DNA of 64,000 nt, taken from Clostridia bacterium. GTDB taxonomy: Bacteria > Bacillota > Clostridia > Oscillospirales > CAG-272. The stretch's first letter is position 1; the number at the start of each line of letters is the position of its first letter. Below the pieces are notes generated by a model. The model was not told where the DNA came from. It saw only the letters and a program-made list of their open reading frames with translations, and ran no database searches. The DNA is taken from assembly GCA_017450965.1 (NCBI GenBank), contig JAFSSQ010000023.1:30074-94073 (forward strand), read 5' to 3'. Positions 7,322 to 48,600 of this stretch are shown one piece after another. The translations under genes and the position numbers were made by a program.

Positions 7322-7333
7322 CGATATCATAAA

Positions 7334-7949: not shown

Positions 7950-7982
7950 GAGGACTCCTTTCGTCAGAAGGAATTCTACCTA

Positions 7983-9010: not shown

Positions 9011-9039
9011 TTGATTTATTGGAAAATATTTGTTATAAT
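9011..9039 (+). promoter_or_regulatory. sigma-A type promoter of the S10-spc-alpha superoperon
   Basis: TTGATT (9011-9016) - 17 nt - TATAAT (9034-9039), preceded by an AT-rich UP-like region. Confidence 0.6.
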
Positions 9040-9045
9040 GATTGA

Positions 9046-31831: not shown

Positions 31832-32896
31832 TTATACCGCGGACGGCTTTTCCGGCGCGTTGGAAAGATGCGGGAGCGAGGGGGGAACGCACAGCACGAG
31901 GCGTTCTCCGCCGGAGATGCGGATCGCCTCCTCCGCGCTCATCTCCTTGCATGGGTTGAGGTAGATGATCTGATCCTCCCGCAGACCTTTGAAGTAAGCT
32001 TCAAAATCGCCGGCGGCGCGGTCGTTGAGCTGGACGGCGCGCAGGTGCTTCATCGTCCGGAACGAGGAAAGGTGCTGGAGATGGGAGCCGCACAGGTGGA
32101 TCATGCCGCCGTGCGGGTAGTCGCCGAGCAGCGCGTCGTCGAGATCCCGGATATACGTTTCGTACATCGCGCCGGAGATCAGATGCGTACTGCATCCGCA
32201 GAGCTGTCCGTATCCGGGCGGCTGGGTACGCGCCCAGGAGATCACGGGCTGCAGCTGCCGTTCGGGGAGGTGTTCCCGGTACCAGCGGTGCAGGGCTCGG
32301 ATCAGGTCGTTGATGACCGCCAGATCGTGTACGACCCCTTCCTCCTCGTCCGCCATGGCAAAGAGCGCCTCCTGCCCGTAGAGGTTGATCAGGATATTCA
32401 GGGCGCTCGAGAGCGTCGGCAGCCCGAAGAGGGGGAGCTTTACGCCGGCGGCGAGGAACGCCTCGGTCGCCCGCCGCGCCAGACCCCACGTTTCGTCCTG
32501 TTCCAGATCCGGGAACGCAAGCTCCCCGATCGGCGTCGTCAGATAGGAGGCGTTCCATTGCCCGTCCTTGAAGAAGACATTGGCGCCGAGGATCCGGTCG
32601 ATGAAATGGACGCCGTAGATCGGGTATTCCACGCAGGCGGGTGAAAAGCGGTTCTCAAGGCACTCCGGCTGGGCGGCGATCAATTCCAGACACTCCTCCA
32701 CCCAGCGCTCCGGCTCGGTGTAGGGGAGGTTCCGGTCCGCGGGGCGCGGGACGGTCCCTCGCAGGGTAAAGACGTATCGGTCGTTATAGGGATTTTTCCT
32801 GCCGTCGAAGAGGTCGGACATCCGGGAGAACCACTCGTCCCGGCGCGCGATCCTGCCCTCGTCGTTCAAAACGGCGCGCGCTTGTTCGCTTAACAT
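31832..32896 (-). CDS. uroporphyrinogen decarboxylase (URO-D)/MtaA-like family protein, divergent
   Basis: 354 aa. IHLCG (H-x-C) plus downstream NPC cysteine resembles the MtaA/MtbA zinc motif. AGGAGG SD. Last gene of the operon. Confidence 0.55.
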   Translation of the reverse strand: MLSEQARAVLNDEGRIARRDEWFSRMSDLFDGRKNPYNDRYVFTLRGTVPRPADRNLPYTEPERWVEECLELIAAQPECLENRFSPACVEYPIYGVHFIDRILGANVFFKDGQWNASYLTTPIGELAFPDLEQDETWGLARRATEAFLAAGVKLPLFGLPTLSSALNILINLYGQEALFAMADEEEGVVHDLAVINDLIRALHRWYREHLPERQLQPVISWARTQPPGYGQLCGCSTHLISGAMYETYIRDLDDALLGDYPHGGMIHLCGSHLQHLSSFRTMKHLRAVQLNDRAAGDFEAYFKGLREDQIIYLNPCKEMSAEEAIRISGGERLVLCVPPSLPHLSNAPEKPSAV

Positions 32897-32933: not shown

Positions 32934-34349
32934 TCAGCGCGTCTCCGGGAACAGTAGATTGTCCACGAACAGCTCGGCAAAGAGCGGATCGGGGGAAAGA
33001 TCGAGATATCCGGCGTGAGCGGTGTAGGCCGAGAGGTCGTTTTGCCGGCAGGCGTAGGCGGCGGTCCCGAGCAGACTGCTGTTGTTGACCGCGCGGCACC
33101 GGTCCCCCAGCTCGGCCGGCAGAAGACCGGTCCTGACCGCGTTTTTGACGTTGATAAAGGCGGAAAAACCGCCGGAGAGGCAGAGCGAGTCGATCTCGTC
33201 AAAGGAGACGCCTTTGCGCTCCATCAAGGTAAGGACGGCGGAGCAGACCGCCGATTTGGCAAGCTGGAACTGGCGGACGTCCCGCCCGGTGAGGAAGATC
33301 CCGTCGGCAAGCGGATAGGGGGAAGGGGAGAGAAGTCCGCTTTCGTCGATCGCGCCGCGATCGAGAAGCGCGGCGATTACGTCGATCAGCCCGGTGCCGC
33401 ACAACCCTTTCGCGGGAGCGTTATTCACAGTCCGGATGTGCCTGCCGCCCTCTTCATCGAAGGAAAAGGCGGAGATCGCGCCGCTCGTGGCGCTCATCCC
33501 GCAGGAGATGTTCGCCCCTTCAAAACAGGGGCCGGCCGCCGCGGCGGTGCAAAGGGCGGAATCGCGGGAAAAAAGCACGATCTCCGCGTTGGTCCCGAGA
33601 TCGACCAGAAGACGGTGCATCCCTTCCCGCGGCATTCCGATCAGGTTCAGACCGGCGACGAGATCCGCCCCGACAAAGGCGGAGATCCCGGGCAGGGTGA
33701 CGACCTCCCGCACGCCGCTCAGTCCGAGTATTTGCGCTTCGGCCCGCCGCGTTTTCAAAAAGACCGGCGTATAGGGAGCGGCGCCGAGCGAGGAGCAGTC
33801 TTCTCCCAAAAAGAGATGGAGCATCGTCATATTTCCCGCCGCGTAGAGTGTGGGGACCTCGGGGATTTCCATCGTTTCGATCAGGCGGTTGATCTCCTCG
33901 ACCAAGACCGATTGGAGCTTTTGGGGGCCGTGTGCGGCGCAATACCCGATCCGGGACATCACGTCCGCGCCGAACGCGGCTTGGGGATTGGCGGCGGTCA
34001 GGACGCGCGCGATCCGCCCCTCGTCGAGCGAGACGAGCGCCAGCGCCAGCGTGGTGGTCCCCACATCCAGCGCGAGCGCGAGACGCCCGGCGGCGCACCC
34101 GCTTTCTTCCGCGCCCGAAACGGAGAGGATCTCGCCGTCCGGCTCCGGCGTTTCCACGGTGCAGTCGGAGAGGATGCGGTACCGGCAGGCGCGTTCCTTT
34201 TTGCCGTTGACCAGCACCACGCATTTTCCGCATTTGCCGAGGCCGCCGCAGGGCAGGAAAAGATCCAGAAGATCCGAGAGGCGGCTCCCGATCGCGGCGG
34301 TTTTCGTTTCGCCGTTCACCGTGACCGCGGCCGTTTTCTGTTCCGCCAC
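32934..34349 (-). CDS. corrinoid reductive activase-like protein (2Fe-2S ferredoxin + ASKHA ATPase domain; RamA/RACo family)
   Basis: N-terminal plant-type ferredoxin Cys cluster (PCGGLGKCGKC...C). ASKHA phosphate-1 motif LALDVGTTT. GTG start at 34349. Confidence 0.75.
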   Translation of the reverse strand: MAEQKTAAVTVNGETKTAAIGSRLSDLLDLFLPCGGLGKCGKCVVLVNGKKERACRYRILSDCTVETPEPDGEILSVSGAEESGCAAGRLALALDVGTTTLALALVSLDEGRIARVLTAANPQAAFGADVMSRIGYCAAHGPQKLQSVLVEEINRLIETMEIPEVPTLYAAGNMTMLHLFLGEDCSSLGAAPYTPVFLKTRRAEAQILGLSGVREVVTLPGISAFVGADLVAGLNLIGMPREGMHRLLVDLGTNAEIVLFSRDSALCTAAAAGPCFEGANISCGMSATSGAISAFSFDEEGGRHIRTVNNAPAKGLCGTGLIDVIAALLDRGAIDESGLLSPSPYPLADGIFLTGRDVRQFQLAKSAVCSAVLTLMERKGVSFDEIDSLCLSGGFSAFINVKNAVRTGLLPAELGDRCRAVNNSSLLGTAAYACRQNDLSAYTAHAGYLDLSPDPLFAELFVDNLLFPETR

Positions 34350-34363: not shown

Positions 34364-34903
34364 TCAGAAGAACACCGCGCCGAAATAGGTGACGGTATTC
34401 TGTCCGTTGACGTATTTCATCCCCGCCGACGCCGCCAGAGCGGAAACGTTGATCCCGTATCCTTCGAGGGAAGCGACGGCGCGGTCCGGATGGCGGCAGG
34501 GCAGATCGTCACGTTTGGCGCACACCCGGCAGAGACCGCAGCCGCCCGCCCCGAGGTGGAGCATGGACGGATCGGGGTATGCCTTTTTGACGCTTTGGAT
34601 CAGTTTGGTGAAGTCTTTTTTCGCGTCCCGTATCCCTTCCATATCGAAACTATCGTCGAGCGGATAGACCTTCTGATAGACCAATACACGGGTATAGGTT
34701 TGGAGCGTCGCCATTACCTCGTCGATCTCTCCAATGTCAGGTGGGCACATCCAGCATTTTCCGTAGAGCCCGCAGCGGTTGGAGGCGCAGATATCGCGGA
34801 ACGCGGCGTCGGTGACAACGGCGTCCGCGCCGATGACGGCGGCGCGAAAAGCGCCGAGCGAGAGCGCTTTTTCGATTTTTTCCTCCCACCGGATCTCAGC
34901 CAT
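34364..34903 (-). CDS. DUF2284 metal-binding protein
   Basis: 179 aa with Cys motifs CGLYGKCWMCPP and GGCGLCRVC. A family commonly next to corrinoid methyltransferase genes (recalled). Confidence 0.6.
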   Translation of the reverse strand: MAEIRWEEKIEKALSLGAFRAAVIGADAVVTDAAFRDICASNRCGLYGKCWMCPPDIGEIDEVMATLQTYTRVLVYQKVYPLDDSFDMEGIRDAKKDFTKLIQSVKKAYPDPSMLHLGAGGCGLCRVCAKRDDLPCRHPDRAVASLEGYGINVSALAASAGMKYVNGQNTVTYFGAVFF

Positions 34904-34921: not shown

Positions 34922-35950
34922 TCAGGAGTCCCGCGCGGCGCGCGCCATCGCGCGCAGGTTTTCAAGCGGGATATTCGGCGAGAGATCGCAGCCGGGCGCA
35001 AGGATAAAGCCGCCGTAGGGCTTCATCTGTTCGCAGAGCGTTTTGCTGATTTCATAAACCTCGTCCGCGCTTTTTGCCGCCAGGATCCCGGCGGGGCTGA
35101 GATTTCCGAACAACGCGCACCGTCCCGCGGAATCTTCCTGCGCCCGGACCATATCGATCGAGTCGACGGAGAACACGTCAAATCCCGCGTTTGCCACGAT
35201 CGGCACGAGTCGGTCGGTCCTGCCGCAGATATGCGTCAGAAAATACGGGCATCTGTCCGCCAGCCGTTCTTTGACCTTCCGGTCCGCCGGCAGGACGAAC
35301 GTTTCGTAATAAGAGGGGCTGATCAGATCCCCCGAGGCGACCGGCTCCGGCACGGTGATGAGATCCAGCCCCCGCGCCGTGAGATCCTCGAGATACGCGA
35401 TCACGATCTCCGCCGCAAAATCGATCGCCTGCCGCACGTCCTCCTCTTCGCCGTCGATCATTTCGACGAGAAAGTTTTCCACGCCGAGCATCTGCGCCGC
35501 CATGGTGAATGGCCCGAAGAAACCGCCGCCGATCATGGTTTCATCGCCGACAAGTTCCCGCATCTTTCCCATCTGGATCAGCGTGCGCTGATAGTAATGA
35601 TCCTTCCTCATATCGGCAATGACGGTTTTCACGTCAAAGCCGCGGATCTCGTCAAGGGATTTCAGAGGGCGGGCGAGGATCTCCGCCGAGAGGACGTCCA
35701 TCTCGACCCTGCCGCCCATTGCCTCCATCATCGGCCAGGCGGCGGCGCAGCCGGAGGTCATGATCTCCGTCCCGATCTCCCGATAAGTGTCGACAAGCAG
35801 CCGCGCGCCGGCGTCCGGCAGGTCAAGCAGCCCCGCCATGGTCAGTCCGTTTTGGGCAGCGATCCACATTTGCCCGTTCAAAACGGCAAACGGCGTATGA
35901 TCGGTCCTTTCAAAGGCCAACGTTTTCAGCACTCTTTCCTTGTTTGTCAT
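34922..35950 (-). CDS. URO-D/MtaA-family methylcobamide methyltransferase-like protein
   Basis: 342 aa. THICG (H-x-C) and APGCD zinc-ligand pattern. AGGAGG SD. Confidence 0.7.
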   Translation of the reverse strand: MTNKERVLKTLAFERTDHTPFAVLNGQMWIAAQNGLTMAGLLDLPDAGARLLVDTYREIGTEIMTSGCAAAWPMMEAMGGRVEMDVLSAEILARPLKSLDEIRGFDVKTVIADMRKDHYYQRTLIQMGKMRELVGDETMIGGGFFGPFTMAAQMLGVENFLVEMIDGEEEDVRQAIDFAAEIVIAYLEDLTARGLDLITVPEPVASGDLISPSYYETFVLPADRKVKERLADRCPYFLTHICGRTDRLVPIVANAGFDVFSVDSIDMVRAQEDSAGRCALFGNLSPAGILAAKSADEVYEISKTLCEQMKPYGGFILAPGCDLSPNIPLENLRAMARAARDS

Positions 35951-35972
35951 CTTTTTTTCCTCCTTTAGAAGG

Positions 35973-37535
35973 TCAATCTTTGCAGAACGCCACCGCCGCT
36001 TCCGCCGCGCTCACCGCGTCCGGCGTGTAGCAATCCGCGCCGATCTGCCGGCAGAAATCCTCGGTGATCGGCGCGCCGCCGATCATGATCTTCACCTTGT
36101 CGCGGATCCCGGCTTCCTCCGCCTTCTTCACGACCTCTCCCATCACACCCATCGTGGTGGTGAGCAGCGCGGAGCAGCAGATCACGCGGCAGTTCTGCTC
36201 GATCGCGGTCTGGACAAAGGTCTCGGGCGAAACGTCGGTGCCGAGGTCGACGACTTCCAGTCCTTTGCCCTCCATCATCATCTTCACCAGGTTTTTGCCG
36301 ATGTCGTGGAGATCGCCTTGGACGGTGCCGATGCAAACCCGGCCGGCCGCCTGCGCGCCGTCCTCCGCAAGCAGGGGCTTGAGAACCTGCGCGCCCATGT
36401 TCATCGCCCGCGCCGCCACCAGCACCTCCGGGACGAAGACCTCATTGTTCTTGAATTTTTCGCCGATCACGTTCATCCCCGCGAGAAGCCCCTGATCCAG
36501 GATCTCCGAGGGCCGCGCTCCCTCGTCAACGGCCTGCTGCACCAGCTCCTTGACGACCTTCGCTTTGCCTTTTTGCAGGTTTTCCGAGATTTCGTTCAGG
36601 ATGCTCATTCGTTTTTCCTCCGTTCGGTTTTTGAGGGTTTCCGCTTCCGTCGCGCTTTGGCGGGCTGTCTGGCGGTATTCGGCCGGCGTCATTTTCAAAT
36701 ATCGGTTAAAATTCTTATAAAAAGAAGGAATGTCCCGCAGTCCGCAAAGGGGAACGATCTCCTCCACGGTCAGCGCGCTGTCCCGGAGGAGCCGGCACGC
36801 CTCGTCGAGGCGGACCGAGCGCAGAGTATCGGAAAAGAGACGTCCCGTCACGCTTTTGAAGAGCTTGCTGATGTGGGACGGACTGACGGAAAACAGTTCG
36901 GCGAGCGAGACGAGCGTCAGGTCGGCGTCGCCGTACCGCTCCTTCACGGTACGGAGCGCCGCCAGCACGATCTGGCTCTCCGCCGGGGAGACCGACGAGC
37001 CGTTTTTGATGCTGCAGTTGAGATAGCGCCCCACGTTGATCAAAAGCTGCGCCAGATCGAAGCGGACCGCTTCGGTCCATTCCGCTTTTTGCTCCGTCCG
37101 CTCGCTCTCGATATCGTCAAAGAGCGCGCCCACCTTTTCCTGCATCCGGACGTTGAGCGGAGCGCAGGCGAGGATGGCGTTGTCGTTGAATACGCCGTAG
37201 CAGTACCGCGGACTTTCCGGGCGGGCGATCTCACCCTCAAACCATTCTCCGATCCGGAACCGCAGCCGCCGGACGCTGAGCGATCCGTCCCTGTCCGCAA
37301 GGAAAAAACGGTGCGGCGTATTCGCAGGGATGATAAAAATATCGCCTGCCTTGCAAGGGAGCTCCTGATTGAGGACGCAGCAGACGCCGGCGCCCGAAAC
37401 GGCGAGACAGATCTCGGTCTGTTCGTGCATCATCAGGTTTTGAAACGCTCTCTCGGCGCGGTATACCTGATCGCAGGAAAGAAGGTCAAGGCGCACGTCC
37501 GATCCGTTGTCCGTTCCGGTGATCTCGCTTGGCAT
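35973..37535 (-). CDS. AraC-family regulator (cupin + HTH) fused in frame to a complete corrinoid (B12)-binding protein
   Basis: Residues 1-290 are a cupin plus AraC HTH (LAELFSVSPSHISKLFK...). Residues 310-520 start MSILNEISENLQKGK and carry DxHxxG (GDLHDIGK), SAL and IGGAP B12 motifs. Internal GGAGG + ATG at 36608. Confidence 0.7.
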   Translation of the reverse strand: MPSEITGTDNGSDVRLDLLSCDQVYRAERAFQNLMMHEQTEICLAVSGAGVCCVLNQELPCKAGDIFIIPANTPHRFFLADRDGSLSVRRLRFRIGEWFEGEIARPESPRYCYGVFNDNAILACAPLNVRMQEKVGALFDDIESERTEQKAEWTEAVRFDLAQLLINVGRYLNCSIKNGSSVSPAESQIVLAALRTVKERYGDADLTLVSLAELFSVSPSHISKLFKSVTGRLFSDTLRSVRLDEACRLLRDSALTVEEIVPLCGLRDIPSFYKNFNRYLKMTPAEYRQTARQSATEAETLKNRTEEKRMSILNEISENLQKGKAKVVKELVQQAVDEGARPSEILDQGLLAGMNVIGEKFKNNEVFVPEVLVAARAMNMGAQVLKPLLAEDGAQAAGRVCIGTVQGDLHDIGKNLVKMMMEGKGLEVVDLGTDVSPETFVQTAIEQNCRVICCSALLTTTMGVMGEVVKKAEEAGIRDKVKIMIGGAPITEDFCRQIGADCYTPDAVSAAEAAVAFCKD

Positions 37536-37579
37536 AGCTCTGTCCTCGTTTTGCGTCGTTCGGAGATTTTTCCACTTTT

Positions 37580-37608
37580 TTTATACCATACCGTCGGGAA
37601 AAAGTAAA
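37580..37608 (-). promoter_or_regulatory. candidate promoter of the corrinoid operon
   Basis: On the minus strand: TTTACT - 17 nt - TATAAA with TGg extended -10. Confidence 0.4.
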
Positions 37609-37712
37609 TAGGGTAAGATTTCCGTTTCACGCCTCCCGGAAAAGAATACCACAGAAGCGGGAACAGGAAAAAAGAAGACGGAACGCCGACCGGCGCTCCG
37701 CCCTTTCGTCTG

Positions 37713-38957
37713 TTATTTTTTGTACCCGTAAGCGGCGCTTTCCTTTTTCTCCACGCAGTCGAGCTCCAGCATATGCAGGAAGGACCCGGGCGTGTAGACG
37801 AGATAGTCGCCCACGCGGTCGCCGTTGTCGAGCGGGAAGGGCTTTCCCTCAAAAAAACCGAGGAGCTTCGCGGGGACGGGGTTGACGATCAGGATCTTTT
37901 TATCTTCCGTTTCGTATCCGAAGCGGTGGGTCGTGGACCAGGAAAAGAGCGTCACGCCGCGGATGCGGATATTGTGGATGTAGCGGGCGATCCCGTCGCC
38001 GGAGAGCTGCAGCGGCAGACCGCGCCGCACGGCGGGGATCAGCTTGCAGGAATACCGGACTCCCCGCGCCGTGACCGTGAAATCCTCCTCCGCCCGCAGC
38101 CGGAAGAGGGAGCGGTAGGGACGGCGGATCGGTGAAAGGGAAAAGCCGTTTTCCCGGCAGCTCTCCCGCAGACGGCGCAGAGCGCCTCTCCGCTTGGAAA
38201 GCGCGCGGATCCGCCGGATCAGGGCGACGAAGAGGAAAAAGGCGGCGATCCCCAAAAGGATCTTCAAAAACTCGGACCGGGTAAGCAGCGCGCCGAACGT
38301 GGCAAAATGGGGAACAAGGACCTGCCACAGCGTACCGACGAAGAGATAGAGGATGAAAACGGAGATCCATTCTTTGAGGAAGGTGGAGCGGCGCTTTTTG
38401 CGCGCCCAGGCGGTATCCTCCTCAAATTGCTTTTTCTCCGCGCTCCAGACCGCGGCGGCGGAGAGCCGCCCGCCCAGATCAAGCAGAAAAAGAAAGGGAA
38501 GCCAGACGGAGAGGAAGAGGGGTTTGACCGCCGGTCCTTTCCCAAACCATTCTTCTACCGCCGAATGGGAAAAGGAGAGGGGAAGAAGAACGAACGTGAG
38601 AACGACCGCCCCGAACTCGGCCCAGAAGCGGGGCGAGGAGAGAAAGAAACGGAGCTCTTCGAGAAGGGTAGCCGGGCGGCGCTTTGCCGTGTGGTAGCGG
38701 AGGTAGAAGGCGTCCCCGCAGAGCGTTTCGATCCGGGTAACGGAGTAAAAGATCCCGGCAAGGATCAACAGGCGGATCACAAAAAGCGCGATCCCGAAGC
38801 GGCCGGCGTCCGTCATATCCTCGTAGAAGGTCGTTTTGGCGAGAAGCCGGTGTACCTCCGCGATCGCGAGATAGGGAAGAAGACGGAAGAATACCGCGAC
38901 GAAAAAACGGAACGCGGAGAAAAGCCGACGTTCGACAGCCGGAAGCGAGATCTTCAC
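37713..38957 (-). CDS. membrane protein with C-terminal soluble domain, unknown function
   Basis: 414 aa, about 7 hydrophobic helices in the first 270 aa, then a basic linker and a soluble tail of about 130 aa. No family recognised. Confidence 0.5.
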   Translation of the reverse strand: MKISLPAVERRLFSAFRFFVAVFFRLLPYLAIAEVHRLLAKTTFYEDMTDAGRFGIALFVIRLLILAGIFYSVTRIETLCGDAFYLRYHTAKRRPATLLEELRFFLSSPRFWAEFGAVVLTFVLLPLSFSHSAVEEWFGKGPAVKPLFLSVWLPFLFLLDLGGRLSAAAVWSAEKKQFEEDTAWARKKRRSTFLKEWISVFILYLFVGTLWQVLVPHFATFGALLTRSEFLKILLGIAAFFLFVALIRRIRALSKRRGALRRLRESCRENGFSLSPIRRPYRSLFRLRAEEDFTVTARGVRYSCKLIPAVRRGLPLQLSGDGIARYIHNIRIRGVTLFSWSTTHRFGYETEDKKILIVNPVPAKLLGFFEGKPFPLDNGDRVGDYLVYTPGSFLHMLELDCVEKKESAAYGYKK

Positions 38958-39197
38958 GGTGCGTCCCCTCCTTTTTGGGTCGTTTTGCCCGGATACACCG
39001 CTATTATACGCCGCGGAACGCGGAAAATCAAGTTCCTTTTGCCGCCTCCGGCGCGATATTTTCCGTTCAATTCAACGTTTTTCGTTCCTTTTTCCGGGAA
39101 AAGAGGAAGCGCCGCCGCGTTTGCCCGGCAAAAGGATTTGACAAACCGGACCGGGTGTGATAGAGTAAAAAACAGAAAAGAAAAAGCGAGGAGCGAA

Positions 39198-39983
39198 ATG
39201 GAAACGAAAAAAGACGCCGCCTTCCTGATCACGGAGTTTTCGGTGCGGCATATGAAGTTCGATACCCGCCATCTCTGCGACGGCTCCGCCGGCAAACTCC
39301 ATACCAGCTTCGGTTATATCGTCAAGGGCTGCGATACGCTGACCACCGAACATCTTACCCTGGAGCTGAAGGAAGGGAGCTTTTTCTATCTGCCGGACGG
39401 GATCCGCTACCGCTCGGAATGGAAGGGTTCGCCCTCGATCGAGTATTATATGCTGCATATGACCTTTGCAAAAGGAGACGACCGGAAGTTTGAGCCGGCT
39501 GAGATCGCTCCGCTCTCCGGACCGGAGACGCTGGCGGTCATTTCACGGATCGAAGAGGGGTTATCCGGCGGAGAGGGAGAGCAGTTCGGCGCTCTCTCCT
39601 CGCTTTATCGCCTGGTCGCCCGGGCGTTCCCGTATCTCAAACCGTGGGAGAAGCCGGAGGGGAGCCCCGCGCTGAAAAAAGCGGTGGAATATCTGAAGGA
39701 GAATTACGCCCGCGATTTCAGCATGGCGGAGCTGGCCGGGCATTGTTTTCTGAGCGAGTCGCGCCTCTATCATCTTTTCGACAAAGAGCTGAAGATCTCT
39801 CCGCTGCGTTTGCGCAACGAGATCCGTGTCAATCGCGCGATGGCTATGCTTCGTACAGGCGAGGTGTCCCTGCGGGAGATCCTTGCGGAAACGGGTTTTT
39901 CCTCGGAAGCGTATTTCCGCAAGATCTTCAAGGAGCAGACGGGGATGACGCTTTCCGAATATGTCCGGATGCTGCAAAAATAA
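39198..39983 (+). CDS. AraC family transcriptional regulator (cupin + HTH)
   Basis: C-terminal AraC HTH (FSMAELAGHCFLSESRLYHLFDKE...EILAETGFSSEAYFRKIFK). Start moved from track ORF 38307 to ATG 39198 (GAGGAG SD). Confidence 0.8.
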   Translation: METKKDAAFLITEFSVRHMKFDTRHLCDGSAGKLHTSFGYIVKGCDTLTTEHLTLELKEGSFFYLPDGIRYRSEWKGSPSIEYYMLHMTFAKGDDRKFEPAEIAPLSGPETLAVISRIEEGLSGGEGEQFGALSSLYRLVARAFPYLKPWEKPEGSPALKKAVEYLKENYARDFSMAELAGHCFLSESRLYHLFDKELKISPLRLRNEIRVNRAMAMLRTGEVSLREILAETGFSSEAYFRKIFKEQTGMTLSEYVRMLQK

Positions 39984-40028
39984 CCGTAAAAAACAGCATA
40001 ATCGAGTAGTCCGTCGGGCAAAAGAAAA

Positions 40029-40056
40029 CGGGAAGTGTTCTTCCCGAGCGTTTTTT
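40029..40056 (+). terminator. weak terminator after AraC gene
   Basis: 7-bp stem CGGGAAG / CTTCCCG, then AGCG TTTTTT. Confidence 0.4.
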
Positions 40057-40080
40057 CGGCTTTTCTCAAACCGGAAGACA

Positions 40081-40147
40081 GCAGAAATGAGCAGAAAAAA
40101 GAGCAGAAAAGAACTGTGTTTCTTTTCTGCTTTTCTGTATAATAAAA
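40081..40147 (+). promoter_or_regulatory. GCAGAAA direct/inverted repeat array (candidate AraC operator) upstream of oxidoreductase operon
   Basis: GCAGAAA at 40081, 40091 and 40103. Inverted TTTCTGC at 40134-40140 and TTTCTG at 40142-40147. Abuts TATAAT at 40148-40153. Confidence 0.35.
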
Positions 40148-40176
40148 TCGGTAGCCTGTACAACGAGGTGGAAGAA

Positions 40177-41205
40177 TTGAAAACAAAAAACATCATATTT
40201 ACCAAACCGTATACCGCGGAGCTGACGGACGGCGATCTGCCGGAGACGCTCGGACCCGATCAGGTCCTTGTCCGCACGGTTTTCAGCACGGTCAGCCCGG
40301 GAACGGAGCGCGCCGTGATCTGCGACTCCCCCAACTGCGGCGGTTACCGCGAGCACGTTTTTCCGCGGCAGAGCGGTTATTCCTCCGCCGGATACGTCCT
40401 GCGCACGGGGGAGAAGGTCAAAAGCGTCAGCGCGGGCGACCGCGTGATCGTTTTCTGGGGGAAGCATTCCTCTTATAATCTTGTGCCGGAGCGTCAGGTC
40501 GTGAAGATCGAGGACGAGTTTGTCACGCTGGAGGAAGCGGCTGTCGTCTTCATTTCCACCTTCTCGCTCGCGGCGATCCGCAAATGCCGCCTCGAGATCG
40601 GGGAAAAGGCGCTGGTCATGGGCTGCGGTCTGCTCGGACAGTTTGCCGTGCGGCTTTTGCGTGCGGCGGGCGCCGCGCCGATCGTCGCCGTGGACACGGT
40701 CGCCGAGCGGCGGGCGGAAGCGCAAAGAAACGGCGCGGATTACGTGTTCGATCCGACCGACCCGGATTTTGCCGCCAAGGTCAAAGCCGTTACGGGCGGC
40801 GGCGTCAACGTTGCGATCGAGGTAACGGGCGTCGGCGCGGGACTGGACGAGGCGCTCGACTGCATGGCGCGTTACGGCAGGATCGCCCTGCTCGGCTGCA
40901 CCCGCGATAAAAACTTTACCATCGATTATTATCAGAAAATCCATACCCCCGGTATCACCGTCGTCGGCGCCCACACCAAGGCGCGCCCGGAGCACGATTC
41001 CCATCCGGGGTGGTTCACGCAGAGGGACGATATCAAGGCCGTTCTGCGGCTGCTTGCCGCGGGAAGGATCGACTTCCGTTCGATGCTTCCGGAGGCCCCC
41101 TTTTCTCCGGCGGAGTGCGGGGAGGTGTACGATCGCGTGATCCGCGACCGCTCCTTCCCGACGCTGGCGCAGTTTGACTGGCGTACTTTGGAAAGCGAGG
41201 AATAA
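40177..41205 (+). CDS. medium-chain (zinc-type) alcohol dehydrogenase family oxidoreductase
   Basis: MDR layout with GCGLLGQFAVRLL Rossmann motif. TTG start 40177 preceded by GAGGTGG. The track ORF start 39961 was rejected. Confidence 0.7.
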   Translation: MKTKNIIFTKPYTAELTDGDLPETLGPDQVLVRTVFSTVSPGTERAVICDSPNCGGYREHVFPRQSGYSSAGYVLRTGEKVKSVSAGDRVIVFWGKHSSYNLVPERQVVKIEDEFVTLEEAAVVFISTFSLAAIRKCRLEIGEKALVMGCGLLGQFAVRLLRAAGAAPIVAVDTVAERRAEAQRNGADYVFDPTDPDFAAKVKAVTGGGVNVAIEVTGVGAGLDEALDCMARYGRIALLGCTRDKNFTIDYYQKIHTPGITVVGAHTKARPEHDSHPGWFTQRDDIKAVLRLLAAGRIDFRSMLPEAPFSPAECGEVYDRVIRDRSFPTLAQFDWRTLESEE

Positions 41206-41209
41206 AACG

Positions 41210-42208
41210 ATGCAACGGATCAAGATTGGTCAGATCGGCGCGGAGCACGACCACGCCGGCGAGATCATGCGTACCCTGAAAAAATATCCCGAGGTTTTCG
41301 ATCTGGTCGGTTTTGCCGTACCGGAGGGGGAGAAGATCGCGGCGCCGAAGCAGTACGAAGGCGTTTCGCAGATGTCCGTAGAGGAGCTGCTCGCCGTCCC
41401 CGGTCTGCAGGCCGTCACGGTGGAGACCTACGAGCTGAATCTGACCAAATACGCGACGATGGCGATCAAGCGGGGGCTTGCCGTCCACATGGACAAACCG
41501 GGCGGCTCGGAACTGTCGGCGTTTGAGGAGATGATCTCCGCGGTGCAGGAAAACGGCGTCGTTTTTCACACCGGCTATATGTATCGCTACAATCCCGCCG
41601 TTCTCAAACTCAAGCAGCGGATCGAAAACGGGGAACTGGGCGAGATCTACAGCGTCGAAGCGCACATGGACTGCGGTCACAGCGCCGCGAAGCGCGAGTG
41701 GCTCGGCGCGTTCCCGGGCGGGATGATGTTCTTCCTCGGCTGTCATCTGATCGATATGGCGATCTTTTTGCGGGGCTTCCCCGAGGAGATCGTCCCCTAC
41801 AACGCTTCGACCGGGATCGGCGGCGTGACCGCGCCCGATTACGGCTTTGCCGTACTGAAATATCCGAACGGCGTTTCCTTTGTCAAGTCCTGCGCGGCGG
41901 AGGTCGGCGGCTATATGCGCCGCCAGCTCGTCGTGACCGGCAGCAAGGGCTCCGTCCAGCTGCTTCCTTTTGAGGCGATGGTCGATTACGGCCGCACAAC
42001 GGACATCTATACCGGCGTGCGCGAGTGCCTGGATACGAGCCGCAGCTGGTGGAACGACGGCTTCCGCTACACGACGCCTGCTTTCGACCGCTACGCCGCG
42101 ATGATGAAGGGTTTTGCCTCCTACGTCGCCGGGGAAAAGGAAAACCCCTTCTCGCCCGACTACGAGCTTGCCGTTTACCGCGCCATTCTTCTGGCGTGCG
42201 GGAGGTAA
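41210..42208 (+). CDS. Gfo/Idh/MocA family oxidoreductase
   Basis: N-terminal IKIGQIGAEHDHA Rossmann-type signature. Start ATG 41210. Confidence 0.75.
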   Translation: MQRIKIGQIGAEHDHAGEIMRTLKKYPEVFDLVGFAVPEGEKIAAPKQYEGVSQMSVEELLAVPGLQAVTVETYELNLTKYATMAIKRGLAVHMDKPGGSELSAFEEMISAVQENGVVFHTGYMYRYNPAVLKLKQRIENGELGEIYSVEAHMDCGHSAAKREWLGAFPGGMMFFLGCHLIDMAIFLRGFPEEIVPYNASTGIGGVTAPDYGFAVLKYPNGVSFVKSCAAEVGGYMRRQLVVTGSKGSVQLLPFEAMVDYGRTTDIYTGVRECLDTSRSWWNDGFRYTTPAFDRYAAMMKGFASYVAGEKENPFSPDYELAVYRAILLACGR

Positions 42209-42211
42209 GCG

Positions 42212-43252
42212 ATGGAAGAAAAAAAGAAAGTCCTCCTTCTCGCGGGCGGCGGAACGCTCGGCAGTTACACCGCGCTTGAACTGCTCAAGGCGGGGTGCTC
42301 CGTCGACGTTGTCTGCATGGAGGAGATCCGCTCCTACCAAAAAAATCTCCGGTATATCCGCGCGAAGATCGACGAAGCGTTCCTTCACGAGTTTCTCGGC
42401 GGGCGCCGCTACGACGCGATCGTCGACTTTCTCCATTACACGAACGTAAAGGAGTTTCCCCGCAAATTCGATTTTCTCTGTTCGCGGACCGACCGCTACG
42501 TTTTCCTCTCCTCCTACCGGGTTTACGCGGACGAGGAACATCCGGTACGTGAGACTTCGCCTCAGCTGCTCGATACGGTCGGGCGCACGGGGCTGCTCGC
42601 CCGCGATACCTACGGACTGACAAAATCGGAGAACGAGCGGTATATCCGCGTCTCTCCGCACAAAAACTGGACGATCGTCCGGCCGCTCATTTCCTTTTCC
42701 CGGTTCCGCTTTGACCTGGTGACCCTCGGCGGGCTCCATCTGATCCCGCGGTATCTCGCGGGCAAGGAGCTGCTCCTTCCCGAGGAGGCGAGAGACAAGC
42801 ACGCCGCGCTCGGCTGGGCGGGGAACGTTGGGATGCTGATCGCCCGTCTGCTCTTTGCGCCGGAGGCGGAGGGGGAGGACTTCATCGTCGGCAACGACGA
42901 AAACCTCACCTGGGAGGAGATCGCGCAGATTTATCACGAGGTGATGGGCCTCCGTTTCCGCTGGGTGCCCGCCGAGCTGTATCTGCAGGTCTGCACCGGC
43001 AATTCGGACGGCGACCGCATCATCCTCCTCCACGACCGGCTGTATGACCGCGAGATCGACAACGAAAAAGTCCGGCGCGTCACGCATACGAATCGGGAGG
43101 AGTTCGTCCCCTTCCGGGAGGCGCTGATGTGCGAGCTTGCCCGTCTCTCCGATTCGGAGGAATCGGTGAAACGTTTTACCGAGACCGAGGTCTCTTACCG
43201 CATCAACCGGCAGATGGACGCGTGGTTCGCCGCCCATCCGCAATCAGAATAA
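42212..43252 (+). CDS. NAD-dependent epimerase/dehydratase (extended SDR) family protein
   Basis: N-terminal VLLLAGGGTLGSYTALELL glycine-rich NAD motif. Confidence 0.65.
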   Translation: MEEKKKVLLLAGGGTLGSYTALELLKAGCSVDVVCMEEIRSYQKNLRYIRAKIDEAFLHEFLGGRRYDAIVDFLHYTNVKEFPRKFDFLCSRTDRYVFLSSYRVYADEEHPVRETSPQLLDTVGRTGLLARDTYGLTKSENERYIRVSPHKNWTIVRPLISFSRFRFDLVTLGGLHLIPRYLAGKELLLPEEARDKHAALGWAGNVGMLIARLLFAPEAEGEDFIVGNDENLTWEEIAQIYHEVMGLRFRWVPAELYLQVCTGNSDGDRIILLHDRLYDREIDNEKVRRVTHTNREEFVPFREALMCELARLSDSEESVKRFTETEVSYRINRQMDAWFAAHPQSE

Positions 43253-43271
43253 GAGAAACAAGGAATCAACC

Positions 43272-44261
43272 ATGAAAGCAATCATAATCCGGAAGGACGA
43301 AAACAGATCTCTCCGCTGGGAGGAGGTCCCCGCCCCGCAGACCAAAGCGGGCGAGATCAAGATCAAGGTCGCGTACGCCGCGCTCAACCGCGCGGATCTG
43401 ATGCAGAGGGAGGGGGACTACCCGCCGCCTCCCGGATGCCCCGAATGGATGGGCCTGGAGGTCTCCGGCGAGATCTGCGAGATGAGCGAGGAGGCAAAGC
43501 GCGAGTCCCCTTTTTCCCTCGGGGATAAGGTCTGCGCGCTGCTCGGCGGCGGGGGATACGCCGAATACGTGACCGTACTGTGGGATATGGCGATGCCGAT
43601 CCCCGAAAACACCTCGATGATCGAGGCGGCCGCTATGCCGGAGGCGTTTGCCACCGCCTATCTCAACCTCTTCTGGGAGGGAAAGATCGAGCCGGGCAAC
43701 ACGCTGCTCATGAACGCGGGCGCCTCCGGGCTGGCCAGCGTTGTGATCCCGATGGCAAAGGCGTTCGGCATCCGCGTGATCACCACCGTGATCTCGGACG
43801 AGATGGTAAAGGCGATCGCGCACCTCGGCGCGGACATCGTCGTCAACACCAGAAAGACCGATATCGTCAAAGTTCTTGAAGACGAGCTGGCGGCCGGGCG
43901 TGGCGTGGACGTGGCGATCGACTGTCTCGGGGGAGAGGTGATGGGTAAGTGCCTCTTCCATCTCACGCACGGCGCGCGCTGGATCGTGATCGCCGCCCTT
44001 GCGGGACAGGAAACGACCGTTGATCTCAAAAACATCTATAAGCGCAACGTCCGCATCGTCGGTTCCACCCTCCGCTCCAAGAGCCCGCAGAAGAAGGCGG
44101 AGATCCTTTCCGAGCTGGTGAAAAACGTCTGGCCGAAGGTCGCGAGCGGCGAGGTGAAGCCCACGATCTACAAGGTCCTCCCCATCACCGAGGCGGAGGA
44201 AGCGCACAATATCCTGAAACGCGGCGAAAACGCCGGAAAAGTCGTTTTAAAGGTGAACTGA
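43272..44261 (+). CDS. NAD(P)H:quinone oxidoreductase (zeta-crystallin/PIG3-like MDR)
   Basis: AALNRADLMQREGDYPPPPG signature and AGASGLASV cofactor motif. Confidence 0.75.
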   Translation: MKAIIIRKDENRSLRWEEVPAPQTKAGEIKIKVAYAALNRADLMQREGDYPPPPGCPEWMGLEVSGEICEMSEEAKRESPFSLGDKVCALLGGGGYAEYVTVLWDMAMPIPENTSMIEAAAMPEAFATAYLNLFWEGKIEPGNTLLMNAGASGLASVVIPMAKAFGIRVITTVISDEMVKAIAHLGADIVVNTRKTDIVKVLEDELAAGRGVDVAIDCLGGEVMGKCLFHLTHGARWIVIAALAGQETTVDLKNIYKRNVRIVGSTLRSKSPQKKAEILSELVKNVWPKVASGEVKPTIYKVLPITEAEEAHNILKRGENAGKVVLKVN

Positions 44262-44307
44262 GGTTCGCCGTGAATAAGAATTTGCCTTTGGCAGAAAGAG
44301 GTATCTT

Positions 44308-45657
44308 ATGAAAAACCGGAAACTCAAAACGGCGGCGGTCCTCCTGTTTGCCGTCATGCTGATCGGCGTCCTTCCCGTTGTCGGTTCTCACGCGGCGGGC
44401 GCTACCGTCGCCTATCTGATGGACGGCGGAGCAGGCCTTGCCGACGGCTCCTCCCCCGAGAACGCGGCTCCTTCGCTCGACGTCGCCTTTGCCGCGCTCG
44501 ACCTCAGTCAGGATTGCACCGTTGTGATCTGCGGACCCTTTTTGATGCTGGATGAGTGGAACTGGGGCGTCCCCTATACCGGCAGCGTGACCTACACCTC
44601 CGTTTACAACGGCATCGACTACCGCGAGACGGCGGGCGCCGTCTTCTCCACCGAGTATAAAAACTTCGTCTGCGCCGGCGCAACGATCTTTGAGAATATG
44701 ATCCTGAACTGCGTGACGGCCAACGGGATCCATATCGACTGCCAGTTCTATCCCTTTAAGATCGGGTACGGACTTGAAGTGCAGGGCGATTTTCTGACCG
44801 GTCTCTCCGACGCGAAGTCCGTGTTCATCGTCGGCGGCTTCCAGTCCGGCAAGGGCGAGGCGGTGATGGGCGCGACCCAGAACGACCGCAGCAGCACGAT
44901 CGAAGTTTATTCCGGCACGAACCTTCTCATCATTGCCGGCTCCCGCGGGTTTTCCGGTGAGATCTACACCGGTACCGTGAGTATCACGGTCGGCGGGACC
45001 GCCGAGGTCGGCGCCGTTTACACCGGCGGCCTCAAGAACAGCGAATGTCTCTTCGGCCGGACCAACCTCATCGTCCAGAGCGGCGGCGTGGTCAAAAATA
45101 TGTATACCACCACCAACAACCAGAAAAACTGCATCACCGACTCTCTGCACGTCTATTATTACGGCGGCTCGATCGGCGGCGTGAACGAGGCAGTCATTGA
45201 CGCGACCCACGAGGACGGCGATCCGATGACCTTCACCAACGGCAAGCATCTGCACGTGACGGCGGATATTGCCGCCGGGCTTTCCGATGATTTCAAGTAT
45301 TTCTTTAGCGATATGGAGACGGTCACGGCTCCCGCGATCGACGAGCCGAAGCCTCCGGTGATCGGTCAGAGTACGGAGACGGCGCCGGCGGAAACGCAGG
45401 ACGTCGGGACCGCCGCGCCCGAAACGGACAAGGCGACGGAACAGATCACCGATAAAGCGACGGAAAAAGTTACCGACAAAGCGACCGACAAAACGACGGA
45501 AAAACCCGGCACAGGCAGCACGCCCGCGTCAACGCAGGTTCCCGGCGGAGACGACGCCCCGTCCTCTTCGCTTCCGCTCATCCTCGGCGCGATCGCTGCG
45601 GCGATCGCCGTTGCCGCGGCGGTTATCGTCGTGATCCTGAAACGCAAAAAGGCGTGA
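44308..45657 (+). CDS. secreted, C-terminally membrane-anchored protein (putative parallel beta-helix; paralog 1 of 3)
   Basis: Signal peptide. The N-terminal segment ATVAYLMDGGAGLADGSSPENAAPSLDVAFAAL resembles the N-cap of pectate-lyase-fold proteins. TDKATEK repeats. C-terminal TM + KRKKA. Confidence 0.6.
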   Translation: MKNRKLKTAAVLLFAVMLIGVLPVVGSHAAGATVAYLMDGGAGLADGSSPENAAPSLDVAFAALDLSQDCTVVICGPFLMLDEWNWGVPYTGSVTYTSVYNGIDYRETAGAVFSTEYKNFVCAGATIFENMILNCVTANGIHIDCQFYPFKIGYGLEVQGDFLTGLSDAKSVFIVGGFQSGKGEAVMGATQNDRSSTIEVYSGTNLLIIAGSRGFSGEIYTGTVSITVGGTAEVGAVYTGGLKNSECLFGRTNLIVQSGGVVKNMYTTTNNQKNCITDSLHVYYYGGSIGGVNEAVIDATHEDGDPMTFTNGKHLHVTADIAAGLSDDFKYFFSDMETVTAPAIDEPKPPVIGQSTETAPAETQDVGTAAPETDKATEQITDKATEKVTDKATDKTTEKPGTGSTPASTQVPGGDDAPSSSLPLILGAIAAAIAVAAAVIVVILKRKKA

Positions 45658-45694
45658 TCTCTCCTCCGCGCATCCCTCTGTCAAGGAGAAATCC

Positions 45695-48600
45695 ATGAAA
45701 CGTTTTTATCCCGCGCTTTGCGCTTTCCTTGCGGTCTGCACGCTGTTTGTGCTGATCCGCATCCTCCCGGGTACGGCCGCGGCGGCGGGGACGACCGTCT
45801 ATCTCGACGCGTCCGCCGGCAGCGACGCCGCCTCCGGGGAGCGCTCTGCGCCGAAAAAGACGCTGAACGCCGCGATCGAAGCGCTCGGCGGCGCGGACGG
45901 CGAGATCCGTCTCCTCTCCGATACCAGCGTGACGGGTGAGTTTGACGAAGCGGATCACGCCGGTCGTATCACGCTCTCCTCGGAAGAGGGCGCCGCCCTC
46001 GTGCTCGCCGCCTCTTCCGTCTATCGGATGAACGGAGAAACGGTTTTCGGCGATCTGACGGTCCGCGCCGGATCCAAGGCGGTCATCGCCGCGCAGTTTT
46101 ACCCCGTTACCTTCGGGGAAGGGGTCAACATTCAGAACGGCGCGCAGAATCTCTTTGTCAACGGCGGGTATGAAAAGCCCTCCGGCACGCATCCCACCGA
46201 CCGCGACGCCCATATAACGATCCATGGAGGCGATTTTTACGCCGTTTGCGGGTTTACCCGCACCAAGGGCGCGGCCAGTACCTACTACTCCGGCACCGCC
46301 TATCTCACGGTGACCGGCGGCACCGTCGCCCTCCTTTACGGCGGGCCGCTCTATAACCACGCGGGCGGCAGCGCCGACATCTCGGTCACGGGCGGGACGG
46401 TCAATACCCTCTATACCGCCGGAGACGTGACGCGCAAGCTGAGCGGCAGCGCAACGCTGCGCTTTGCCGGCGGAACGGTCCGTACCATCCGGGTCAACAA
46501 CGTGATCGGCAACGTCCGCGCCGTCTTCTCCGGCACAGCGTTCGACCGCGTGCTTGTCGAGTACGCAAGCGATGCGCTGAAAAGCGAGTCGGAGAAAAAC
46601 AGAAGCTATAAAACGGCGGAGTACGACGCCTCTCTCTACGACGAGGCGCATATCCGCCAGATCGTTTCCGCGTTTGACGAGACAAAAAATCTCTCCCGTC
46701 TCCGCGTATCTCCGGACGGCTCCGTCCGGACGCTGGAGGAAGGGTTCCGCCTTCTCTCTCCCGCGGACGGCGAGCTGATCGTTGCCGGTACGACCTCTCT
46801 TTCCTCCTGTACGCTGAAGGAGACCGAGGTCCCCGTTACCGTGCGGGGCGAGGAGGGAGCCAAACTGATCCTGGAACGGGGGGCGGTCGTGGAGATCCCG
46901 TCCTCTCTGACCCTTGAAAACCTGACGGTCTCCGCGCCCGAGGGCGCTACGCTCCGGCTGCGTTCTTCCTTTACGGCGGCGGAGAGCGTAACGACGGAGG
47001 GCGATCTTGCGATTGTGATCGAGCCGGAAGAGTCTTCCGCCGTGATCCTTTCCGGCGGCCGTTACGCTTCCGTTTCCGTCTCCGGTCAGGCGGTCTTCGC
47101 CTGCGCGGGATCGGAAGTCGCCTCCGTGACGGCGGAAAACGCGCCCGACGCCGTGATCGACGTTGCGGACGGCAGGATCGGATCGCTTAACCTGAACGGG
47201 CAAACCGCTCTCCGCTGCTTTGGCGGGGAGATCGGGACCCTGACCGCCTCCGGTACGCTTGTGATGTACCGCGACAAAACGGTGATCGGCGGCGCCGCCC
47301 TTACTTTATCCGCCGACAGCAGACTTCTGCTTGCGGACCGGGCCGGGGGAGGGGAAGAACTCCGCGTTTCCTTTCCGCGGACGGAGGAGCGGACCTTCTG
47401 CTATCTTGCCGATTCCGGCAAGGGCGACGGATCCTCTCCTTACGCTCCCCTCTCCAGTCTGAAATCGGCGGTCGCCGCGCTCCCGGACGGCGGAAAAGTC
47501 GTTCTCTGCGGCGACTATACCCACAACGAACTGCGTATGGGCGAGCACGCCTTTCCCGTTACGATCACGGCAAACGACGGGTTTACCGACTACGGCGCTC
47601 GTCTCGAACTGCAGACCAGCTTTATCGCGGGCGGGGATACGCTTTTTGAATTCCTGACGATCACGGCGCCGAAGGCGGACCTTCGCATCTACGGCGCGGG
47701 ACACAGCCTCACCGTCGGAGAGAACGTTTCCACCGAGCTGATCGACGCCAATACCTCCTGGCCGAACCTGTGCGGCGGCAGTCCGAACGCGGCGGAGCTC
47801 GGCGGGAAGATCTCGGTCACCGTATGCAGCGGGGAATGGGGCTGGCTGACCGGCGGCTCGATCGTAACGGATACGAACCTCCCGCAAAACGGCGGCGAGA
47901 TCGAGATCACGATCAACGGCGGGATCTTCCACAAATACGTAACGCTGTCCGCCGCGCGGTTCGTGCGCGGCAGCGCCAAGCTGACGGTCAACGGCGGCAC
48001 CCTTTACGGCGGGATCTTTGGACTCCGCGAAACGAGCGCCGCGATCACCGATATTTTCAACTGGGATTTCGACGTGACGGTCAACGGCGGGCAGATCTGG
48101 TTCGAGATATCTCCCGCCTATCTGCGGACCACCCGCCAGAACGGCAGCTGGAAGGTCACCTTGAACGGCGGCGACTTCTCCCACCTTACCGATCTGAATG
48201 GTTCGGAGAAATTTGCCGGTAAACTGACAAGCGAGCTTGTCGTCTCGGACGGCGTAGATCTGACCCGCGAGGAGAGCGGAGAGATCGCCTTTGCCAACCC
48301 TCTGCGCGAGGGCGCCGATCCCTGGATGTTCTATTACGGCGGTTTTTACTGGTACGCCGCGACCGGCGGGGTCTTGCATAAGCTGGCCAATCCCTCCGAC
48401 CTCGCCTATTCGGCCGGGCATCAGATCCTGTTCCCGAAAGCCAACACCGACTATTCCCGCAAGATGTGGTCTCCCGAGATCCACTATTTCACCGAGGAGG
48501 AAGCGGGCGAGGGCAACGGCGGCTGGTATCTCTTTATCGCGGCGGATAACGGCGCGGACACGGCGGAGTTTATCAGCGCGTTCGTCTATAAATGCCTCGA

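Follow-up and report, generated by a model that had tools for sequence, protein, structure and literature searches.

An AraC-type regulator joined in frame to a corrinoid carrier protein, with a conserved and probable internal translation start, heads a corrinoid methyl-transfer operon in Clostridia

The window analysed here, a stretch of 64,000 nucleotides (nt) from a Clostridia bacterium (GCA_017450965.1, contig JAFSSQ010000023.1), carries a gene in which an AraC-type transcriptional regulator runs in frame into a corrinoid-binding protein (35973..37535, minus strand, to which the window coordinates below refer unless stated otherwise). The gene starts with ATG and encodes 520 amino acids (aa; ~58 kDa), and all four Pfam domains of its product scored above the curated cut-offs: an N-terminal cupin/AraC-type ligand-binding domain (residues 36-125, 37161..37430; PF07883 32.2 bits against 27.2 for Cupin_2, PF02311 26.2 against 21.1 for AraC_binding), an AraC-type helix-turn-helix (HTH) region (residues 211-289, 36669..36905; PF12833 66.9 bits against 33.6 for HTH_18, PF00165 36.5 against 26.6 for HTH_AraC), a B12-binding_2 cap (residues 313-386, 36378-36599; 73 bits) and a Rossmann B12-binding domain (residues 399-504, 36024-36341; 89 bits). 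Between the two halves lies a variable, A-rich linker (residues 290-309, 36609..36668), in which the junction reads ...RQTARQSATEAETLKNRTEEKR-MSILNEISENLQKGK, with KNRTEEKR before MSILNEISENLQKGK and no stop codon. The linker holds a putative internal ribosome-binding site, composed of a Shine-Dalgarno (SD) sequence GGAGG (36617..36621) and an 8-nt spacer (AAAAACGA), which is followed by an in-frame ATG (36606..36608) encoding M310. The C-terminal half read from this ATG (35973..36608) would be a separate 211-aa corrinoid protein, and it carries the motifs DxHxxG (GDLHDIGK, 36297-36314; D408, H410 and G413), SxL (S455-A-L457) and GG (G486-G487). The open reading frame (ORF) and Pfam analyses bore out what the original prediction had read from the letters, namely a 520-aa ORF without a stop between its halves, an N-terminal cupin and AraC-type HTH, a complete corrinoid protein of about 211 aa with its three motifs, and a GGAGG 8 nt before the ATG at 36608.

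The N-terminal half has two hallmarks of the AraC/XylS family, a DNA-binding domain of ~100 aa with two HTH motifs and an N-terminal cupin domain, while the HTH does not stand at the C-terminus of the protein, with 231 residues (linker and corrinoid protein) coming after it. In the cupin domain G48, G50, C61, G64, D65 and H75 are invariant within the family, and a CYG motif (C112, Y113 and G114) is nearly so. The AlphaFold2 model shows a β-barrel followed by two long helices at residues 129-174; in the full-length model the domains were predicted confidently (predicted local distance difference test score, pLDDT, 83; predicted template-modelling score, pTM, 0.48), and the linker appeared as a low-confidence helix (pLDDT 62-68).

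By its sequence, the C-terminal half is of the methyltransferase-carrier type and is predicted to bind a corrinoid and to shuttle methyl groups. It consists of the cap and Rossmann modules with the DxHxxG...SxL...GG signature, including the His cobalt ligand, and it matched the Protein Data Bank (PDB) entries 1Y80 (E = 3e-53), MttC 7XCN (E = 6.5e-45), MtmC 3EZX and a Desulfitobacterium protein, 4JGI, whereas the CarH chains 5C8A/8C31 matched it weakly (E = 7e-4 to 8e-4). Its score with TIGR02370 was 193.0 bits, below the curated cut-off of 215.3, and those with the MtgC and MtbC models were 211.7 against 370 and 170 against 350, which places it near the subfamily-domain model and within no named equivalog. 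Corrinoid methyltransferases and a reductive activase are encoded beside it, in the window as in related loci, and the 64-kb window encodes no corrinoid protein other than this half of the fusion. In one of the metagenomic loci (L067, 6981-8693) the same kind of corrinoid domain is fused to a uroporphyrinogen decarboxylase-type (URO-D) methyltransferase in a 570-aa protein, which we take to resemble the fused methyltransferase/corrinoid proteins CmuA and MtsD/F/H.

The joined arrangement is not peculiar to this genome. A search through 5.8 billion proteins gave 2,289 relatives, and among the 120 clusters listed all 120 homologues share the four-domain architecture, with 56-87% identity, 92-100% coverage and lengths mostly of ~505-530 aa; they were drawn from the NCBI, ENA, JGI and Logan collections and comprise many independent assemblies. 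NCBI has a record of the exact protein of the window, MBQ7171109.1 (‘MAG: cobalamin-dependent protein [Clostridia bacterium]’), from a 116,179-nt contig. So as not to select fused genes, metagenomic contigs were searched with an alignment of the AraC half only, and this yielded 24 loci with AraC identities down to 35%, of which the 23 reaching far enough downstream were all fused in frame and free of stops. The fusion is present in 32 fetched loci, and to the question that had come with the original prediction, whether fused or separate genes are the rule among orthologues, the listed clusters and the AraC-half loci gave one answer, that fusion is the rule.

Across 121 aligned family members the linker varies between 9 and 26 aa with many insertions and deletions, and it is built from AAA, GAA and AAG codons, each of which is one mutation away from a stop. 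Since it has nevertheless always remained in frame and stop-free, the fusion must be maintained by selection. The two halves evolve at different paces, with a mean pairwise identity of 81% for the corrinoid half versus 46% for the AraC half in these 121 members; such high conservation of the former is expected, because a carrier must dock with two methyltransferases and with the activase. The DxHxxG/SxL/GG signature is intact in 140 of 140 aligned sequences, including those that lack the internal start.

In distant relatives (HTH identity ~30-37%), the AraC and corrinoid-protein genes adjoin each other as separate genes; they are spaced by -4 to 136 nt, an SD stands ahead of the ATG of the second gene, that of the corrinoid protein, and this is probably the ancestral arrangement. 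Such candidates for closer unfused relatives as were traced were rejected. When representatives at 50% identity were searched with the AraC half, fused proteins of ~505-535 aa were obtained together with proteins of ~300 aa at 30-45% identity; three of the latter length (P0123, P0125 and P0141) proved to be truncated fragments of fused genes, and the one complete-looking unfused protein that was traced, P0131, is uninformative, since it is a singleton from a contig of 1,002 nt, is not followed by a corrinoid-protein sequence and has nearest relatives that are all fused. The closest free corrinoid proteins (L010-L027) were likewise dismissed as the immediate unfused ancestor, as none has a co-directional AraC gene directly upstream, although a divergent AraC gene occurs in four of them.

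The internal start is conserved as a start rather than as a stretch of protein. The junction Met is found in 113 of 121 family proteins, and the residues at -5 to -1 before it (K-G-E-K-I, DNA AAAGGAGAAAAAATC) are conserved in an otherwise variable linker; in the junction DNA, information content is highest at -15..-6 and at the ATG, with lower and irregular values over the remaining linker. Free corrinoid proteins begin with MSIL... at the position matching M310. In one protein without the Met (P0085/L105), the junction codon is GTG with a perfect AAGGAG 9 nt upstream, so that the start codon was kept and the amino acid was not. Each of the 19 distinct start-bearing junctions has GGAG or GAGG with its first base at -12 or -13, and GGAG is retained in three codon phases, where it encodes different residues (KGE, GGE, RGE, IGE, REE and KEK, and TEE in the window). 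GGAGG also precedes the ATG in L113 (PEEE), where it begins at -16, and in L114 (TGG). Where the SD covers a glycine codon, that codon is GGA in 16 of 16 cases versus 24% of the other glycines of the same genes (binomial p = 1.5e-10).

Pairing energies with the anti-SD sequence were calculated for 19 distinct start-bearing and nine start-less junctions, with 451 other in-frame internal ATGs from 28 related genes as the control. The start-bearing junctions averaged -8.9 kcal/mol (range -7.3 to -11.5) versus -1.8 kcal/mol for the control ATGs, of which 0.4% reached -8 or stronger (Mann-Whitney p = 1e-13, which, like the other p-values here, overstates independence because the sequences are kin). 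In the window, the internal start pairs at -9.5 kcal/mol, more strongly than the gene's own start (-5.9) and as strongly as the structural genes of the operon (-8.0 to -11.8). The 50 nt around the internal start are also among the least structured mRNA of each gene (mean z +1.6), with a folding energy of -4.1 versus a gene mean of -13.0 kcal/mol and a G+C content of 0.46 versus 0.61 in the window. A consensus scan found no sigma-70-like promoter on the minus strand inside the AraC half and so gave no indication that the corrinoid part has a transcript of its own, although the scan also missed the likely main promoter (-10 TATAAA). The junction thus shows both an SD at functional spacing and conservation beyond that of the surrounding codons, as in known genes with in-frame internal starts, and on these comparisons the internal start is probably in use.

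Downstream of the fusion, four genes follow on the same strand, closely spaced or overlapping. The first encodes a corrinoid methyltransferase of the MtaA/CmuA family (URO-D; 34922..35950; PF01208 153 bits, TIGR01463 172.6 bits, below its cut-off of 235), the second a DUF2284 predicted metal-binding protein that is kept in related operons (34364..34903; PF10050 145 bits), and the third a RACo/RamA-type reductive activase of corrinoid proteins (32934..34349; PF14574 191 and PF17651 132 bits; AcsV/RamA models). A URO-D gene comes after the fusion in nearly all related loci, and other family members follow the same plan with at least two URO-D genes, DUF2284 and RACo. The AraC-corrinoid fusion is a conserved gene heading a corrinoid methyl-transfer operon in which no second carrier gene is present. 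The fourth gene (31832..32896) encodes a 354-aa protein without any Pfam or NCBIfam match, and sequence comparisons did not match it to the divergent URO-D proteins of other loci either; its family holds at least 1,050 homologues, annotated as ‘hypothetical proteins’. The URO-D fold was recognized because the predicted structure matched where sequence comparison had not: the AlphaFold2 model (pLDDT 95.5, pTM 0.92) found its best PDB fold matches in the Methanosarcina mazei methyltransferase entries 4AY7/4AY8 and in uroporphyrinogen decarboxylases. With invariant C-G-C and H-x-C residues, and with copies in the orthologous operons of L113 (13348-14448) and L114 (5699-6760), the protein is probably a zinc corrinoid methyltransferase, as judged from the model, from a family that has no profile.

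Upstream of the fusion gene, a candidate promoter and activator site was located at 37580..37653, with a -35 element TTTACT (37603-37608) and a -10 element TATAAA (37580-37585). Two blocks, TGTGGTATTCTTTT (37640-37653) and AAACGGAAATCTTACCCTATTTACT (37603-37627, overlapping the -35 element), are kept across four orthologous regions (the window, L081, L114 and L113), in a spacer that is otherwise much less conserved, and we infer from this footprint a candidate binding site for the regulator itself. In the same upstream region, AAAAGAATAC/AAAAGAAGAC make up a short direct repeat with 30-nt spacing, which was set aside as probably due to chance, the phylogenetic footprint being the more informative.

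Several further observations concern the operon and its surroundings. The URO-D methyltransferase of the window (34922-35950) shares only 35% identity with that of L081 (1932-2954), the closest related locus, as against 76-88% for the genes on either side; it seems that the methyltransferase is swapped as a cassette, with carrier, DUF2284 and activase kept. In L105 (4025-6055) DUF2284 and the RACo activase form one 677-aa protein, and this fusion suggests that DUF2284 works with the activase. In L113 a divergent set of genes of the energy-coupling factor (ECF) transporter type adjoins the operon upstream of the fusion (3678-8424, minus strand), comprising an S component, two ABC ATPase domains and a CbiQ-like T component, together with a gene for a DUF4430 protein, and this may be a corrinoid uptake system. 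Long antisense ORFs lie on the plus strand over the operon of the window (35940-37607, 555 aa opposite the fusion gene, and others between 33000 and 36000); they were rejected as genes, their Arg/Pro/Gly-rich, low-complexity translations being by-products of high G+C. Beside the operon, a second AraC-type regulator is encoded on the plus strand (38307-39983); its HTH is C-terminal in the ORF as listed, and the true start probably lies at ~39.2 kb. It is followed by genes for a zinc-dehydrogenase, for GFO/IDH/MocA oxidoreductases and for a large GH43-containing protein (39961-49528), the whole being an unrelated sugar-utilisation cluster.

The internal start has been lost in part of the family. 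Nine distinct fused junctions have neither ATG nor GTG, and eight of them also have no SD (mean -3.0 kcal/mol), typically showing AAAGAAGAA where start-bearing junctions have AAAGGAGAA. The exception, P0040/L107, in which ATG has become AGG, keeps its SD and represents the most recent change, with its nearest start-bearing relative at a distance of 0.14. Parsimony on a neighbour-joining tree required at least nine changes of start state, the start-less members forming one clade (P0070, P0120, L002, L005 and P0121) plus scattered single losses. The state of the start goes along with gene content: a methyltransferase/DUF2284 operon without a separate corrinoid-protein gene is present in all 15 start-bearing loci that extend far enough downstream, versus one of six start-less loci (Fisher p = 3e-4, which overstates independence in that three of the start-less loci are one clade). 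In L002, L005 and L108 a single URO-D gene follows the fusion, with no activase or DUF2284 within 6-8 kb, and L109, outside the clade that holds these three, has no methyltransferase gene nearby; in such reduced contexts the start-less fusions may be purely regulatory versions. L008 has DUF2284 and two URO-D genes and no separate carrier. The start-less L106, by comparison, has its fusion (6001-7572) together with the full operon and a separate 211-aa corrinoid-protein gene (8935-9570) with an SD of its own, which is 85% identical in protein and 75% in DNA to the domain still fused to the regulator; the 90%-identity cluster of this fusion has 12 members from several collections. L106 looks like a duplication that has split the two proposed products into two genes, a natural separation of the functions.

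The reading that we consider probable, if not by a wide measure, is that of a genuine fusion heading a methyl-transfer operon, which would give two products from one mRNA, with a regulator that activates its own operon and an attached carrier domain that reports the state of the cofactor. Two translation starts on one mRNA are strongly indicated by the comparisons of the junction. The weak start at 37535 would yield scarce 58-kDa full-length regulator, and the strong internal start (GGAGG, 8 nt, ATG 36608) abundant free 23-kDa corrinoid protein, which would serve as methyl carrier between the two methyltransferases and as substrate of the activase; starts of unequal strength would match the differing amounts in which a regulator and an enzyme component are needed. 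The full-length protein would bind the conserved site that overlaps the -35 element and from there activate the operon it belongs to, and its attached carrier domain would signal whether the cofactor pool is loaded or empty, methylated or not. That activation depends on the presence, methylation or redox state of the cofactor through this domain is speculative, yet it is the role we favour, because the fusion has been kept after loss of the internal start with its cobalt motifs intact and because L106 retains the fused domain beside a free carrier. A stricter form of the idea, to which we would give tentative credence and rather doubt than believe, is that the AraC regulator distinguishes the corrinoid states themselves (empty, loaded, Co(II) and methyl-Co(III)), the methyltransferases and the activase writing the signal onto a carrier domain identical to that of the free carrier.

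Several points weigh against this picture, besides the kinship among the sequences. The Lys/Glu-rich linker is A-rich in any case and contributes to the open-mRNA signal, and several of the more distant fused representatives have no junction Met. No separate corrinoid-protein gene was found within 6-8 kb in L002, L005, L108 or L008, so that in these lineages either the full-length protein suffices or the carrier is encoded elsewhere. The full-length AlphaFold2 model gave no confident arrangement between the domains and thus no structural hint that the corrinoid domain controls the HTH, and the case for the use of the internal start is drawn from nucleotide and protein comparisons.

An unlikely, though by no means far-fetched, alternative is that the regulator simply lost its stop codon beside the carrier gene, leaving two halves that work independently, with the internal start supplying the carrier and the tether having no regulatory role. 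The adjoining separate genes of the distant relatives, with their short gaps and the SD before the second ATG, make a fusion in one step plausible; moreover, the AraC half retains a cupin sensor of its own, and AlphaFold gave no confident contact between the domains. A tether without function would, however, be expected to acquire stops or frameshifts in a linker of ~20 AAA, GAA and AAG codons, and none was seen in the 121 clusters or in the 23 loci sampled without bias. Several lineages without the internal start are still fused and have the DxHxxG/SxL/GG motifs intact, and L106 has kept its fused domain although a separate carrier gene is present.

We regard as distinctly unlikely that only the full-length protein is made, acting as regulator and carrier in one, with the junction Met and SD as relics of an old gene start. 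Corrinoid domains can function as part of larger fusions, the URO-D-corrinoid protein of L067 being an example, and the start-less fusions of L002, L005, L108 and L008, with no corrinoid-protein gene nearby, would fit such a protein. A relic does not explain why information at the junction is high at AAAGGAGAAA and the ATG and lower and uneven elsewhere in the linker, why GGA is used in 16 of 16 cases at a synonymous site, why the SD outlasted the change from ATG to GTG, why SD and start codon are lost together, or why the internal SD is stronger than that of the gene itself.

It is very improbable that the SD-like sequence is an intragenic pause site, which would let the AraC half fold before the corrinoid domain emerges, and not a start signal. 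A conserved SD-like element lying exactly at a domain boundary would suit such a function, but the element keeps a fixed distance to the ATG or GTG that it is coupled to (GGAG at -12/-13 throughout the 19 junctions compared), it is gone once the codon is lost, and the codon stands where free corrinoid proteins have their natural N-terminus. The second reading offered with the original prediction, an assembly or sequencing error or a very recent stop loss in this genome only, is conceivable a priori and finds a parallel in the separate genes of distant relatives, but may be practically discounted, with the same fusion in all 120 listed clusters from four collections and in the 32 fetched loci, the exact protein on record at NCBI, and a 1-kb singleton (P0131) as the sole unfused near relative examined.

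If the stricter form of the sensing idea is true, the fusion would be a new kind of signal-sensing activator, a B12-based analogue of the Ada methylation switch that is at the same time a two-product gene. The family is widespread in gut and rumen Clostridia and would tie expression of a demethylation pathway to corrinoid availability or methylation flux, and corrinoids are competed for in gut communities. The conserved internal start would make an unusually clean comparative case of two proteins from one bacterial gene, for which L106 provides a natural split control. For annotation, the carrier of such an operon is invisible as a separate gene, and its second methyltransferase has no Pfam model. 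Public annotations name these proteins ‘cobalamin-dependent protein’, ‘helix-turn-helix domain-containing protein’ or ‘corrinoid protein of di/trimethylamine methyltransferase’, and a full-text literature search, whose incomplete coverage does not prove absence, found no paper on an AraC-corrinoid fusion, the nearest results being those on MtaR (PMC13602510) and on the mlp clusters (PMC10418091).

With the corrinoid proteins of known methyltransferase systems (MtaC, MtmC, MtbC, MttC and MtgC; PDB 1Y80, 3EZX, 7XCN and 4JGI), the C-terminal 211 aa share domains, motifs and length as well as the co-encoded URO-D methyltransferases and RACo, and the predicted internal product would be an ordinary member; the window copy differs in lying inside a regulator gene with no stop before it and in its TIGR02370 score (193 against 215). 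The operon as a whole resembles the mlp clusters, which combine MtaA-like proteins with a corrinoid protein and Ram/RACE (Kountz and Balskus, PMC10418091), and UroD-superfamily O-demethylase systems. Several URO-D-fold methyltransferases, one corrinoid protein and a RACo-type activase are common to both, and as in the mlp clusters there is no obvious pterin methyltransferase, while a regulator fusion is not mentioned for those clusters (PMC10418091). In Eubacterium limosum and other acetogens, the methanol methyltransferase operon begins with the gene for MtaR, an AraC-type activator with a PocR sensor domain that acts from a site just upstream of the -35 region (PMC13602510). Like the gene described here, the MtaR gene is an AraC-family activator gene standing first in a corrinoid methyltransferase operon, whereas its product is a separate protein with a PocR sensor and no corrinoid domain; MtaR shows that the layout of AraC gene first and corrinoid system after is established, and the fusion is one step away from it.

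As a conceptual analogue of the sensing hypothesis, and for the hypothesis only, Ada also combines an AraC-type DNA-binding domain with a methyl-accepting module in one polypeptide. Ada is an AraC-type HTH regulator that is activated by a methyl group on a Zn-bound cysteine of its N-terminal domain. It has no corrinoid, and its homology to the window protein is limited to the HTH (30.7 bits, residues 203-294); the N-terminal Cys4-Zn methyl-acceptor domain is absent from the window protein, which has a cupin in that place.

In-frame internal starts are known from SctQ/SpaO of type III secretion, CheA-L/S, IF2 and ClpB. A ribosome-profiling study with retapamulin lists cases in which such a start gives a free C-terminal domain, arcB among them (bioRxiv 10.1101/520783). 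In these genes an SD and a start codon at a domain boundary provide a free C-terminal domain beside the full-length protein, as is predicted for the junction described here. The window gene differs in that its halves are separate genes in relatives, that a carrier is paired with a transcription factor and that its products are predicted from sequence.

The CarH/LitR proteins, in which a MerR-type HTH is joined to a B12-binding domain, are adenosylcobalamin-dependent, light-sensing repressors, and to our knowledge the cobalamin domains that control transcription factors are essentially of this light-sensing CarH/LitR/AerR type. They are the precedent for such control, and they share with the window protein a DNA-binding domain followed by a four-helix cap and a Rossmann B12 module with a His cobalt ligand. 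The first reading of the original prediction, a genuine B12-sensing regulator with internal initiation and CarH-like logic, survived in part: fusion and internal start were supported by comparison, and the likeness to CarH was not, with a carrier-type B12 half and no MerR domain. The HTH of the window is AraC-type and accompanied by a cupin, no MerR match was obtained, and neither of the two features by which CarH membership was judged was found. The B12 half is far nearer the carrier 1Y80 (E = 3e-53) than CarH (E = 7e-4), and the CarH cap motif Wx9EH cannot be present, because the cap region contains no Trp. The hosts are gut anaerobes, for which light sensing is implausible, and the gene heads a methyltransferase operon. 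Its place is probably with two known kinds at once, the transcription factors with a B12 domain and the genes that give two products through an internal start.

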